Assembly (NCBI GenBank): GCA_045587685.1
Contig: JAZNCS010000051.1
Coordinates: forward strand, 17,149-81,148
Direction of reading: 5' to 3'
DNA: 64,000 nucleotides
From: Acutalibacteraceae bacterium
GTDB lineage: Bacteria > Bacillota > Clostridia > Oscillospirales > Acutalibacteraceae
The position numbers were made by a program, and so were the translations under genes. Of this stretch, positions 36,051 to 54,230 are shown one piece after another. Within the stretch, counting starts at the first letter, position 1. Each line of letters opens with the position of its first letter. The notes below the pieces were generated by a model. That model was not told the DNA's origin. It did no database searches and saw only the letters and a list, made by a program, of their open reading frames with translations.

Positions 36051-36091
36051 ACAAAAAGTGAAGTTAAGTCTGCCAAAAGGCACACTTAGTT

Positions 36092-36128
36092 AAAAAGGCA
36101 CTAATCGTATAACGATTAGTGCTTTTTT
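36092..36128 (+). terminator. intrinsic terminator after the ATPase gene
   Basis: GCACTAATCGT-ATA-ACGATTAGTGC plus TTTTTT. Confidence 0.8.
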
Positions 36129-36273
36129 GTGAAAGGGCTACGAAAAGGATACAAAATTGAAAGCGGATGAGTAAAGTCAAAAACGGATGATTTTTCACCC
36201 AAGCGGATTCAAATTTAATGATAGGTTGATTTTATAGTCTACAGACGCGTAGATTTCAAAAACAATATTGTTA

Positions 36274-37215
36274 CTATGGTGATACAATCTCCTGCCCCAC
36301 TTCATATAATTTTTGTTCTTGACTCTCCATCATACTAAGTTGATTTACTGTATCCTGCATTATTATTGTAGCTACAAAAGGTATAAATATTGCTAATACC
36401 AAGCACAAGGTTGCCATATTTGAATTGCGATTCTTGCTTTGACAAATACTATCAATTCTTTGCCCGTGTTTGTAAAACCAAAATATTTGATAAAATGGAA
36501 CAAATATGCAAAGCAACAATTTGCTTGTAGGATTATAATATTCACTATTAGGAGCCTTGTTGAGATATGTAGTAATTCGATAAATCCATATCAACGGCCA
36601 AATACCGCAGGTAAATATGGATAGAAAAATATGCTTTGCCATCGAACAATATGCATCACCATAGTCAACATCTTTATAAGGATTTATAAGCCAATTAACA
36701 AGGGAAATAAAAGTAAATATGTGTAACAAGGAAAAAATCAATACTCCGATGGCCGTTGAAAACAGCAAAATTATATCACTCCAATAAATAGTACTCATAA
36801 ATGGAGCTACTAAAAAAAGAATTAAAGCTATCCTATTCAACATTTTATAATGCTTTTTAACTTTGCTCAAATCGATTTTAATCAGCGATTGATCACTGAA
36901 GGCTATTGCGAGAAGTAATACAAGACAATAAGCAACTGCATTAAATAGCACATTGATATTCAAATTTGTAATATGTACAACAAAGCTTATTAAACTTTTG
37001 AGAGCATATGCGGCTATTGCAAATATCAAAATATTATCTTTTTTCTTTTTAAAAAGAATAATACACAAGAATATATCGAGTGGAATCGATAGCATAATAA
37101 GTGGGTTACTTGCCAGTCCTATAGGAGACATTGCAATAAATGACACTATATCTAGTATAGTGTGCAATAATGATAGAATTGCAGCAATCGGGGTTCGAAG
37201 TTTTTGTGTGCTCAT
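36274..37215 (-). CDS. polytopic membrane protein with a C-terminal DUF4234-like domain
   Basis: Start trimmed to MSTQKLRTP (AAGGAG RBS). About 8 predicted helices. C-terminal ..FTCGIWPLIWIYR...FVPFYQIFWFYKHGQRI. Confidence 0.55.
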   Translation of the reverse strand: MSTQKLRTPIAAILSLLHTILDIVSFIAMSPIGLASNPLIMLSIPLDIFLCIILFKKKKDNILIFAIAAYALKSLISFVVHITNLNINVLFNAVAYCLVLLLAIAFSDQSLIKIDLSKVKKHYKMLNRIALILFLVAPFMSTIYWSDIILLFSTAIGVLIFSLLHIFTFISLVNWLINPYKDVDYGDAYCSMAKHIFLSIFTCGIWPLIWIYRITTYLNKAPNSEYYNPTSKLLLCIFVPFYQIFWFYKHGQRIDSICQSKNRNSNMATLCLVLAIFIPFVATIIMQDTVNQLSMMESQEQKLYEVGQEIVSP

Positions 37216-37580
37216 AATGATTTTAACTCCTTGAAAATTTGATAAATAAAAAGTGCGGCTACCGAAGTAAACCGCACTAAAAACGCAAACTCCGATAGTC
37301 GCCAAACCAACTGATATAGCAAGAACTATACCTAATTATCGCCATACTCAGTAGGAATTTGCATTTTTAACAAACTCATAATAAGTATGACTAAAAAAGG
37401 GTACAACTATCCCATAAAGATAAAAATAGCCCTTGCTAAAAATATTCAGTTGGTTTGGCATAATCAGTATAGCACTATTTTGGAGAAAAATCAATACAAA
37501 TTGGAATAAAAAATGAAAAACTTCAATTTTAACGATCACTCACAAAATTAACGATATACCGTAGTTTTAACGAAAGTAAA

Positions 37581-37632
37581 AAGAACCCATCCACCGAAGG
37601 TGCGAACACCTCCGAGAGATAGGTTCTTAAAT
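37581..37632 (-). terminator. branched terminator after the four-helix-bundle gene
   Basis: Minus strand AAGAACC...GGTTCTT plus TTTT, enclosing GGAGGTG-TTCG-CACCTTC. Confidence 0.5.
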
Positions 37633-37636
37633 TGTA

Positions 37637-37981
37637 TTAAGTATTCTCTTTTAATGTTTTACAACTTGAAATCAGCATTCGTCTAATTCGCCCGCAAAGA
37701 TTGCGATATGTCTTGAAAGTTTCTTCGTCTATAGCGTTAGTGTTAAACAATAGCTTTAACCAGCCTTCTGTTTCACTACATTCTTTGAGAGCAATTTCAA
37801 ACTTTGAAACCATATCCGATTTGCTCTGTCCGTAATTCGCTTCACGAATATTCGCATAAATACTGCTTGAGCTTTTACGAATTTGGAAGAAGGTGTTTGA
37901 CGGAGCTTTTATGTTTTGGCAAAGCAGTTCTATTTCTGTTGCAAGTTGTTCGGAATATATGAGCAAATAATTCTTTGGCAT
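37637..37981 (-). CDS. four-helix-bundle protein (TIGR02436; 23S rRNA intervening-sequence protein / Avd-like family)
   Basis: 114 aa. ..QIRKSSSSIYANIREANYGQSKSDMVSKFEIALKECSETEGWLKLL.. Own extended -10 promoter (TGATATAAT) and AGAGGTGA RBS. Confidence 0.75.
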   Translation of the reverse strand: MPKNYLLIYSEQLATEIELLCQNIKAPSNTFFQIRKSSSSIYANIREANYGQSKSDMVSKFEIALKECSETEGWLKLLFNTNAIDEETFKTYRNLCGRIRRMLISSCKTLKENT

Positions 37982-38026
37982 AATATCACCTCTTTGAGTG
38001 TATTATATCACATTCTAACAAAAAAT

Positions 38027-38202
38027 CAACGGCTTGCCGTTGTATATCATCAATTTCGAAGAAATTGCATATCATCCACTCGAAGAGTGGCATATCATCA
38101 TGTCGCAGAGAATACACGCCGGAGCGTGATGATATACAGCCCAAAGGGCTGATGATATCCACCACACTTCGTGCGGTGATGATATGCCAAGTCTGCGACT
38201 TG
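38027..38202. repeat. composite array: 3x ATATCATC(A) then 3x TGATGATAT, interleaved with seven different short hairpins
   Basis: 9-mers at 38044, 38069, 38092 and their complements at 38127, 38150, 38177. Hairpins at 38027-42, 38052-66, 38076-90, 38115-28, 38137-51, 38160-78, 38188-202. Confidence 0.7.
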
Positions 38203-38205
38203 AAT

Positions 38206-38237
38206 AAAAAAGTCGTATCCTATTGATACGACTTTTT
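38206..38237 (-). terminator. intrinsic terminator of ssrA (bidirectional shape)
   Basis: AAAAAAGTCGTATC-CTATT-GATACGACTTTTTT. Confidence 0.8.
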
Positions 38238-38584
38238 TGGTGGAGGTGAGGGGAATCGAACCCCTGTCCAAAAATCTATCCATATCGGCATCTCCGAGCG
38301 CAGACACATCTTTAAAATTCCCTTATATTGCCGTTAAGTGTCGAACTGCAATATTCGGTAGTCTCTACTTCGTGACAGCAAATGAGACACTTTGCTGTTC
38401 ACGTTCATCGCTAAAATGACACCTTCCCCCGACCGCGATACTTCGGGTTCAGATGAGCCGCCTAATTAGGCAGCTAAAGCAACTTTATTGTTGTTACTTA
38501 ATTTTGTGTGCGGCTTGTTAAGCGGTACCGCACCGCTGCTCGCTTCCAATACTTCAAAATCCCTGTCGAAACCTTTACACCCCC
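38238..38584 (-). ncRNA. ssrA: tmRNA
   Basis: Minus strand 5' GGGGGTGTAAAGGTTTCGAC ... 3' GGGGTTCGATTCCCCTCACCTCCACCA. Acceptor stem pairs with G3:U. Tag frame ends ..NNNKVALAA-TAA (stop 38466..38468). Adjacent to smpB. Confidence 0.9.
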
Positions 38585-38631
38585 GTATTTGAAGTAAAAA
38601 GTAATAGTGAATAGTGAAGAAGTATACTTTT

Positions 38632-53956: not shown

Positions 53957-54031
53957 GCGGGTGTAGTTCAACGGCTAGAATCCCAGCCTTCCAAGCTGGT
54001 TGTGTGGGTTCGATTCCCATCACCCGCTCCA
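53957..54031 (+). tRNA. tRNA-Gly (anticodon UCC), CCA encoded
   Basis: Acceptor GCGGGTG/CACCCGC, anticodon stem CCAGC/GCTGG with loop CTTCCAA, T-loop GGTTCGATTCC. Confidence 0.9.
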
Positions 54032-54037
54032 AAACGA

Positions 54038-54212: not shown

Positions 54213-54230
54213 CCCATCACCCGCTCCAAA
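54213..54230 (+). repeat. 18 nt direct repeat of the tRNA-Gly 3' end (CCCATCACCCGCTCCAAA)
   Basis: Identical to 54016..54033. Confidence 0.85.

Follow-up and report, generated by a model that had tools for sequence, protein, structure and literature searches.

The window, the whole stretch of 64,000 nucleotides that was analysed, carries smpB and the tmRNA gene ssrA on its minus strand, followed by a variable segment that harbors a hairpin array. Read along the minus strand, the locus is composed of the following parts:

39090-38632, minus strand: smpB.
38238..38584, minus strand: ssrA (tmRNA; Rfam RF00023, 155.3 bits), with its CCA 3′ end (38238-38240) as the left insertion junction.
38206..38238: cassette terminator, which reads as bidirectional, A6 - GTCGTATC - aatag - GATACGAC - T6.
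38027-38202: hairpin array of 176 nt, between the cassette terminator and the promoter of the four-helix-bundle gene, with the next four lines as its parts.
38188..38202, minus strand: H0, terminator-proximal hairpin CAAGTC-GCA-GACTTG.
38111..38187, minus strand: near module, three units of ATATCAT(C) plus a CA...TG hairpin (H1 38160-78, H2 38137-51, H3 38115-28).
38099..38110, minus strand: centre element c′ (CTCTGCGACATG), 3′ strand of the long-range helix P1.
38027..38099, minus strand: far module, three units of (G)ATGATAT, one base, and a hairpin (H4 38076-90, H5 38051-67, H6 38027-42).
38002..38029, minus strand: sigma-70-type promoter TTGATT-16-TGTGATATAAT, 10/12 matches, with a TG motif (extended -10).
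37637..37981, minus strand: four-helix-bundle gene of the 23S rRNA intervening-sequence protein family (PF05635, 69.6 bits; TIGR02436).
37578..37628, minus strand: terminator of the four-helix-bundle gene (from sequence).
36274..37305, minus strand: DUF4234 membrane protein gene (Pfam), the second cargo.
36129..36247, minus strand: conserved non-coding tail (...TTTTCGTAGCCCTTTCAC), the end of the variable segment.
36092..36128: presumed native bidirectional terminator (A-run/stem/T-run, from sequence), the right insertion junction.

The placement of the array between the ssrA terminator and the promoter of a four-helix-bundle gene, as described in the original prediction, is borne out by these assignments. 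The promoter overlaps the far end of the array, as its -35 box TTGATT is partly made by the end of H6, and its -10 region contains the word-like GTGATAT. It is conserved in the homologous loci L533 and L535. A 94% identical copy of the cassette terminator precedes the homologous array in L533, and the terminator stems covary between L048 and L141. The second-cargo slot varies and holds WapI, ASCH, DUF4234, or other ORFs in other copies. The tail is 85% identical to positions 1113-1236 of L526, where it stands directly upstream of the next terminator, array, and gene, and 69% identical to the tail after the L517 cassette. The presumed native terminator is common to ssrA and a convergent P-type ATPase gene, and a homologous hairpin closes a much shorter ssrA-ATPase spacer in L001 and L006. 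The only known RNA families that reach the Rfam threshold in the window are tmRNA and tRNA. An antisense promoter beyond the far end of the array is neither called in the window nor conserved in the flanks of other arrays.

The array is built from six copies of a conserved word and seven mini-hairpins. The word ATATCATC stands at 38044, 38069, and 38092 on the plus strand, and its inverted form GATGATAT at 38128, 38151, and 38178, each copy with a T before it. When the sequence is read again, the three plus three words and the seven hairpins all agree with the earlier description in coordinates and sequence. That description also had a hairpin in every gap; all hairpins are present, but the central gap consists of a hairpin plus a 12-nt non-hairpin element at 38099-38110. 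This centre element is complementary, with one mismatch in the window copy, to the 5′ arm and loop of H0, which double as the 5′ strand of P1. The mismatch in the hairpin at 38160-78 reads A.C on the plus strand and G.T on the minus strand. The array starts 3 nt past the T6 of the terminator with a junction of AUU or AUC, not CAAY, and at its far end H6 together with ATTTTTTG resembles a weak terminator and is called terminator-like in the promoter/terminator scan. The 8-mer word occurs 15 times in the window versus 1.36 times expected; six copies lie inside 142 nt, and the remaining nine are dispersed and belong to no other array. The word spacing of 23-36 bp is irregular and out of phase with the DNA helix. 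Chance or low complexity is ruled out by these 8-mer counts, the fold z-scores, and the counts of hairpins in the spacers.

The predicted folding stands out against shuffled controls with z of about -8. The folding energy is -87.2 kcal/mol on the minus strand (z = -8.1) and -82.5 kcal/mol on the plus strand (z = -7.5), versus about -50 for shuffles. In eight arrays of the window's type, a hairpin of at least 5 bp is found in 31 of 32 spacers (5.4 expected), and the 341 base pairs of their 53 hairpins comprise 334 Watson-Crick pairs, six G.T pairs, and one mismatch. Arrays of this type are termed class II, and those with the opposite module order class I. A covariance model constructed from seven class II arrays, with the window excluded, finds the window array with 181.7 bits (E = 3.3e-48) over model positions 1-191 of 191. 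The same model has no second match in the 64-kb window; with one copy in 64 kb, the array is not the common multi-copy repeat that had been considered at the outset. Class I arrays are scored weakly (13-22 bits) and a module from phage L221 with 57 bits.

The RNAalifold consensus of the seven arrays places P1 (15 pairs) around three hairpins, which are followed by three more hairpins. Standard pairs occur in 98.7% of cells versus 85.2% in shuffles and 30-44% with slid partners. Changes on both sides are seen in 21 of 57 pairs versus 10.8 ± 2.1 in shuffles, with 0 of 500 shuffles as high, in a test whose sequences are related and whose structure was taken from the same alignment. The view that the words are conserved and the spacers keep only their ability to fold is thus upheld in the homologous arrays, whose hairpins do covary. 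P1 alone is fully paired at all 15 positions in the seven-array model, with six covarying pairs and no broken cell. In 16 of 21 arrays, P1 exceeds every other long-range helix in length, and these 21 use 18 different 5′ strands for their best long-range helix. In L527, a change of the H0 loop from GCA to GTA is matched by a change of the centre element from TGC to TAC, and a third locus holds the uncompensated intermediate of this loop change. The H0 hairpin and P1 are mutually exclusive, yet both are conserved. The aligned arrays show hairpins and P1 to be kept by compensatory changes, so that the array acts as a folded single-stranded nucleic acid.

Unconstrained folding gains 7-23 kcal/mol over local hairpins by themselves, on either strand, and the predicted energy minimum for class II is a stack of four-way junctions in which words pair with words. 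Such a ladder had been proposed originally, and it finds no support in the comparison. No change in the partner word makes up for the word variants ATCTCAT, GTGATAT, ATTATAT, and ATGATAC, and the number of words may differ between the halves (2 versus 4 or 3 versus 4). The long-range pairing that is conserved is P1, which had escaped notice earlier, and not the pairing between words. All word variants but one either fall in the linker or leave the closing pairs of the stems intact on the strand that carries the G-word. Their placement suggests that each module folds on its own strand. The strand signals are in conflict, as it is the C-word strand that has the GNRA tetraloops and C(GNA)G triloops but only on the G-word strand do the closing pairs A-U / U.G / G.U hold.

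A relative of the array exists among known RNA motifs, where the original description had found no match among those familiar to it. In a permissive scan, Rfam Gut-1 (RF01706) matches the window array at 38000-38100 on the minus strand (17.7 bits) and at 38127-38190 on the plus strand (15.3 bits), both below the curated gathering threshold of 50 bits. The far module is Gut-1-like on the minus strand, and the near module reads as a Gut-1-like module on the plus strand. Other class II arrays have no Gut-1 match at E <= 5. Above-threshold Gut-1 is found at seven ssrA-adjacent arrays (L062, L075, L083, L051, L012, L043, and L049; 52-79 bits), and among the matches listed the tRNA-adjacent IMG/VR arrays L365 and L405 match at 77 bits. 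L046 matches on both strands with 46.9 and 37.6 bits, which indicates that a full array consists of two opposed Gut-1-like modules.

The window array contains at least three tandem short hairpins split by a fixed 7-nt word R-U-G-A-W-A-U. Its word (G)AUGAUAU can be read as AU | GAU | AU, in which the outer bases extend the stems and the centre forms a 3-nt linker. In this reading, each copy bridges two neighbouring stems by closing the first, supplying 3 nt of linker, and opening the second, as in [AU-stem-GU] GAA for class I and [AU-N-CA..UG-AU] GAU for class II. The intermediate word GUGAUAU is found in L043, L517, L221, and the published Gut-1 seed. As in Gut-1, in which the consensus YYYYYCARY precedes the motif, the window array lies directly 3′ of the U-run of an intrinsic terminator. 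On the strand that encodes the upstream gene, the G-word (GUGAAAU) module of class I is the one beside the terminator. In class II, to which the window array belongs, that place is taken by the module with the complementary word AUAUCAU, and the G-word module is distal. This opposite order holds in every class II array examined (six fully segmented), and inversion cannot convert class I into class II. The centre element pairs with the terminator-proximal hairpin in both classes, and P1 closes the near module in class II. Further class II arrays come from a filtered metagenome pattern scan (at least four) and from IMG/VR (at least two), both broad scans being mostly noise before filtering, and six further class II contexts were reached through homologues of the four-helix-bundle protein.

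Gut-1 was discovered in human-gut sequences only and was rated as certainly RNA (Weinberg et al. 2010, Genome Biol 11:R31). The published alignment, when read with its flanks, contains a tRNA, a terminator, the motif, a complementary centre element, and four inverted words, a context that is undiscussed in Weinberg et al. 2010 (Genome Biol 11:R31). The searchable literature contains nothing on Gut-1 beyond the discovery paper, in which a single sentence is given to the motif. By score and layout, the window array is a rearranged relative of Gut-1 and not a threshold member; because of its score below threshold and its opposite module order, it is filed outside Gut-1 proper.

Arrays occupy the same address in relatives. 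Contigs that encode an identical SmpB share about 97% identity with the window from smpB to ssrA, and the similarity ends exactly at the CCA end (38233). Two of them regain homology at window position 36057, after 285 bp versus 2.2 kb in the window. The 285-bp segment consists of its own terminator and an array of the same layout with the word AATGATG four times and then CATCATT. An array directly follows the ssrA terminator in nine of 68 related species (species-level relatives from Acutalibacteraceae and other Oscillospirales), whose flanks are too diverged for an empty-site comparison. The words in those nine arrays are GTGAAAT, GTGATAT, ATGAAAT, TGAAATA, or GTGAAGT. A pattern scan for three forward and at least two inverted words finds no array elsewhere in the window or in loci L001-L090; the 64-kb window has a single array, and in related loci totalling about 0.45 Mb arrays are seen only beside terminators.

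The same block of terminator, array, and gene is found in other contexts. As the exact four-helix-bundle protein is not on record, homologues were used for the look-ups. It has 3105 homologues, and the best 120 of these 3105 are 77-96% identical and mostly lie on contigs shorter than 2 kb. A class II array stands directly upstream of every close homologue looked up, with the following features before the terminator and array:

L517 and nine like it: tRNA-Arg next to mnmA.
L527: tRNA-Arg next to tsaD.
L533: tmRNA plus a gene-less mini-element.
L535: a tRNA-like CCA end.
L532: barstar.
L526: the tail of a preceding unit.
L145: tRNA-Tyr.

The block occurs in at least six other contexts with 77-86% identity, after tmRNA, tRNAs, protein genes, and a previous cassette. 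Window 38211-37647, which includes the terminator, is 86% identical to L517 and L526, 82.5% to L533, and 73-81% to L527, L532, L535, and L145. The gene behind the array differs between loci: in L141 (tRNA-Gln), the array is 81% identical to that of the window and a different gene follows, and elsewhere TIR-domain, PHP-domain, and small proteins without assigned family are encoded behind arrays. The predicted linkage to ssrA and four-helix-bundle genes is real but not general, as arrays of both classes are followed by many unrelated genes or by none. In L463, a radical-SAM gene adjoins an array terminator, and the run of terminator, array, promoter, and gene is present twice in series, first with a class I and then with a class II array. 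In L487, two arrays flank one bidirectional terminator, each with its near module on the terminator side.

Units of terminator, array, and tail can also do without a gene. In the published Gut-1 alignment, one identical unit of this kind, about 330 nt long, is found at three different tRNA genes, in each case between the CCA and a different terminator, and it is also seen in tandem, up to four units with a 240-nt period. The left junction is always located just before the A-run of the terminator, after CCA or CAC, and the right end reads ...CAC (...TCAC in the window tail), followed by another terminator. Breakpoints inside arrays are seen in L048, in L005, between L365 and L405, and in a remnant in L527, and identical hairpin units occur in different order among arrays. 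These comparisons, which in part draw on metagenome contigs and the supplement of a paper rather than complete genomes, show the terminator and array, with or without the gene, to be portable between tmRNA, tRNA, and other sites, and the position of the array to be fixed directly behind a terminator.

Several identities for the array or its segment were rejected. On inspection of the sequence, arm-type integrase sites, Tn7/Mu-type end sites, type III antitoxin repeats, a CRISPR-like mini-array, k-turns, start-codon or UGA arrays, and mimicry of promoter -10 boxes were all dropped because they leave the covarying palindromic spacers unexplained or their needed partners are absent. REP/BIME or another high-copy repeat does not apply, given that hairpin sequences differ within and between arrays and that 64 kb hold a single array. 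The UGAUGA in the word had been recorded as box-C-like; RUGAUGA is present in the far words, but no separate D-box partner is seen, the Rfam snoRNA matches are noise-level (13-15 bits), and nothing supports a box C/D reading. A phage or plasmid origin was rejected, with no blastn match in INPHARED or PLSDB. Among the matches listed, the IMG/VR arrays L365, L405, and L454 border on prophages, being placed in the host DNA beyond a partial-tRNA att site, a location to which the copy in phage L221 is the exception. A classical integrase island was dismissed as well, since no second copy of the ssrA 3′ end exists in the window. A small insert behind tRNA-Gly carries such a 3′-end repeat, so the two kinds of insert differ.

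Slightly short of even confidence, and hence tentatively, we regard the array as the cis-acting, single-strand-folded head of a family of mobile cassettes. The cassette would comprise its own bidirectional terminator, the two-module array, a promoter, the four-helix-bundle gene, a variable second gene, and the conserved tail, and its insertion would have separated the CCA end of ssrA from the terminator once shared with the convergent ATPase gene. The array would be the cis part needed for spread, a folded single-strand recognition or recombination site whose uniform words may be read by a factor supplied in trans and whose hairpins and P1 may give it shape, as in integron attC sites. Its cis-acting role in spreading is probable because units of terminator, array, and tail still spread. 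The cassette's own terminator could make the insertion harmless to the stable-RNA gene. The repeated words may further make the array recombinogenic, which would explain the shuffling of units and the swapping of cassettes at the site.

Several findings weigh on this reading, among them the conflicting strand signals of loops and closing pairs. The flanks of the fetched loci show no recombinase, transposase, or reverse transcriptase. The ssrA 3′ end is present once, and no target duplication is found in the window. With respect to IS200/IS605 elements, the junctions follow CCA or CAC without duplication, and an approximate IS200 TnpA query matched in tblastn only L019, an array-free locus. The context junctions lie upstream of the terminator, 35-45 nt from the array, which speaks against the mobile-head reading, as the crossover point is then not inside the array itself. 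The phage L221 copy, which has the G-module only, is located inside an operon between a gene and its terminator, upstream of terS, and this placement fits an RNA role better than a recombination role.

The main rival is an RNA that insulates against read-through, an explanation that we consider possible but on the unlikely side. Transcripts that run past the terminator, whether from the ssrA side or in antisense from the cassette side, would form a very stable domain of many hairpins and then stop at the weak second terminator (H6 and the U6) or decay. The very strong ssrA or tRNA promoter would thereby be kept from interfering with that of the cassette, and antisense transcription from reaching the stable-RNA gene. 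The order of terminator, array, and promoter at nearly all loci is as expected for such an insulator, as are the two inward-facing near modules around the single terminator of L487, the terminator-like call of H6 with ATTTTTTG, the overlap of the -35 box with H6, and the stability gained over local hairpins on both strands. Closing pairs that hold on the G-word strand only are RNA-like, and the rating of Gut-1 by Weinberg et al. points the same way. The gene-less units, however, sit before intact native terminators with nothing there to protect, and most arrays are without a U-run past the last hairpin. No space for an array promoter is seen behind the terminator and none is called on the other strand, so that array RNA would arise only through leakage past a strong terminator. 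The uniformity of the words within an array and their family-wide conservation are left unexplained by an insulator.

Weaker than the insulator are the readings as an sRNA or protein sponge and as a duplex operator. The former, which appears improbable to us, takes the array as a trans-acting or protein-binding RNA whose modules present the word and bind several copies of a protein; for the window's subtype, the neighbouring four-helix-bundle (Avd/HEPN-like) protein could be the partner. It draws on the Gut-1 matches of each half on its own strand in the window and in L046, on versions with a G-module only, such as the one in the transcribed operon of phage L221 before its terminator, and on word variants that spare the closing pairs and alter linker bases only. 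An array is also present at all contexts of close four-helix-bundle homologues that were looked up, but most arrays, including all checked class I arrays, are without such a gene nearby. No promoter for the array is found on either strand, and nothing is conserved past its far end. The array lies upstream of the gene's promoter and is thus not part of the four-helix-bundle mRNA. A duplex operator is very improbable. It would offer six sites to a DNA-binding regulator of the adjacent promoter, with palindromes that are incidental or cruciform-prone. Words that are conserved regardless of pairing, in two opposed sets that reach the -35 box, would suit it, as would the GTGATAT in the -10 region. 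A duplex site, however, does not need spacer palindromes that are kept by compensatory changes, and the irregular, out-of-phase spacing, the gene-less units, and the differing cargo genes, which imply no common regulator, argue against it.

The mobile-head reading can be extended further, in a form that we consider doubtful. The arrays would be the folded single-strand recombination sites of an unrecognised integron-like cassette system of gut Clostridia, with the tRNA/tmRNA CCA end or the CAC end of the previous cassette as the landing pad. Terminator and promoter would arrive with every cassette, and the abundant PF05635 protein would be an array-binding accessory encoded on the cassette. 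If true, this would explain the presence of the PF05635 family inside 23S rRNA intervening sequences.

To the extent that the literature could be searched, five things are new: the two-module architecture, P1, the terminator/CCA address, the cassette context, and the PF05635 link. Gut-1, an orphan since 2010, can now be assigned to organisms (Acutalibacteraceae and other Oscillospirales) and to a fixed address immediately past intrinsic terminators, which mostly belong to tRNA/tmRNA genes, and it gains a full architecture of two opposed modules with a covarying closing helix. The evidence for its travel in a discrete insertion unit turns it into a set of testable alternatives: recombination site, insulator, or protein-binding RNA. 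A very abundant and highly conserved PF05635 cassette is exposed as well. Members of PF05635 occur in 23S rRNA intervening sequences and, as Avd proteins, in diversity-generating retroelements; outside these retroelements the family is not known to have an assigned function. For annotation, the region behind ssrA/tRNA genes in these genomes should be viewed as a stack of small gene-less and gene-bearing units, which breaks assemblies and is easily mistaken for an integrase island.

Among known systems, Gut-1 resembles the window array most directly in its tandem mini-hairpins of 4-9 bp between a fixed word whose ends close the neighbouring stems, in its position after a terminator U-run, and in its occurrence in human-gut Clostridia. 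They differ in the word (AUGAUAU in the window versus GUGAAAU), in the window stems, which all start with CA and end with UG, and in the window modules, which face the opposite way relative to the terminator. The Rfam Gut-1 model covers 77 nt and one module; the second inverted module, P1, the link to tRNA/tmRNA genes, and mobility are undescribed there. BOX, ERIC, REP/BIME, Correia, and MITE-like elements are likewise small, gene-less, hairpin-rich intergenic units near terminators. All of these elements are modular, vary in the number of their internal modules, and are spread by an activity that may act in trans. The array differs from them in its low copy number, with one in 64 kb, and in that it conserves its words and not its hairpin sequences, and belongs to a unit with a precise insertion point and its own terminator.

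Class C group II introns and attTn7 illustrate the same harmless, position-specific insertion by the 3′ end or terminator of a conserved gene. The array element, however, is without intron RNA domains, reverse transcriptase, or Tns genes, and it inserts ahead of the native terminator, bringing along a new one. In 23S rRNA intervening sequences, a PF05635 protein is likewise carried on a small insertion at a stable-RNA gene with stem-forming flanks; the array insertion lies outside the mature RNA, behind its CCA, and both array inverted repeats are upstream of the gene instead of flanking it.

The array shares with attC sites short conserved inverted boxes and intervening DNA that is conserved only in its folding, and in attC it is the folded single strand that acts. 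Both punctuate small accessory-gene cassettes that are stacked in tandem at one chromosomal site. The window array is without the R/L box consensus (GTTRRRY), and arrays have three or four boxes per side plus branch hairpins. No IntI-type integrase is found among the genes annotated in the flanks of the fetched loci. The cassettes also differ from those of integrons, as they carry their own promoter and terminator and use the CCA end of a tRNA or tmRNA gene as their platform.

The ssrA gene of this family is followed in relatives by two further kinds of insert, gene-less modules and integrase-type islands, at the following places:
L011, L012, L014, L023, L040, L041: gene-less modules directly 3′ of ssrA
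L049, 4349-4573; L533, 1081-1267 and about 2290-2440: further copies of gene-less modules
L002, L020, L031, L032, L033: integrase-type islands past the ssrA terminator

The direct repeats of the islands (GCACGAATTTT or TACGAATT) sit immediately behind the ssrA terminator in the five island loci and show that this family's ssrA serves as a classical integration site as well. The gene-less modules measure ~100 nt or 150-190 nt, and each finishes with a repeat of the 3′ end of ssrA (..CTCCACCA). They stand singly or in tandem rows of two or three, with ssrA on one side and its terminator or the next unit on the other. They have no Rfam match at E ≤ 0.1. As for the calling of the tmRNA itself, ARAGORN returned none at 38238-38584 of the window, where Rfam scores 155 bits, and in L533 it called the tmRNA together with a spurious, overlapping permuted one.

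Heptamers recur both as tandem CTTCACT after terminators in other loci (L040, L022, L042, L532) and as a periodic run upstream of ssrA in the window:
Window ~38598-38627: 7-nt periodic run AGTAAAA AGTAATA GTGAATA GTGAAGA, in the interval separating the smpB stop from the 5′ end of ssrA
A GTGAA core is common to the 7-nt periodic runs and the Gut-1 word.

Arrays in other arrangements were found in other loci:
L221, 8630-8796 (also L302, L450): single Gut-1-like module in a phage contig
L487, 628-1056: class I arrays (Gut-1 proper, Rfam RF01706) flanking a single bidirectional terminator, one to each side
L001, 4065-4110: class I array remnant (GCCTGCGGGC GTGGGTGGATTTATT) past an AATGATG-type array

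The L221 module, with the word GTGATAT once and then ATGATAT four times, follows rusA and a 75-aa Cys-rich ORF and precedes an intrinsic terminator; terS lies ~60 nt downstream, which places the module at the boundary of the early and late operons. In L487, the near module of each array adjoins the shared terminator. The L001 remnant resembles the third near-module hairpin and the 12-nt centre element, and its position behind another array suggests that elements have inserted and decayed here more than once.

The four-helix-bundle protein of the cassette (window 37637-37981) has >3000 homologues, the best 120 of which share 77-96% identity and are mostly carried on contigs <2 kb, suggesting that the sequence is multi-copy or mobile and causes assemblies to break. 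The cassette ends in a conserved tail:
Window 36129-36247, minus strand: non-coding tail (...TTTTCGTAGCCCTTTCAC)
L526 (1113-1236) matches it with 85% identity. The tail contains CCTATCATTAAATTTGAA, to which a direct repeat, ATCGTTAA(AA), is akin; this stands twice before the DUF4234 gene (window 37521-37558) and also past the L062 array.

An insert elsewhere in the window is bracketed by repeats of a tRNA:
Window 54016-54033 and 54213-54230: 18-nt direct repeat of the tRNA-Gly 3′ end (CCCATCACCCGCTCCAAA)
The 197-bp insert between them is devoid of genes, opens with its own terminator and has the look of a miniature element that integrated with duplication of an att site. In this att-type duplication it differs from the ssrA-side cassette.
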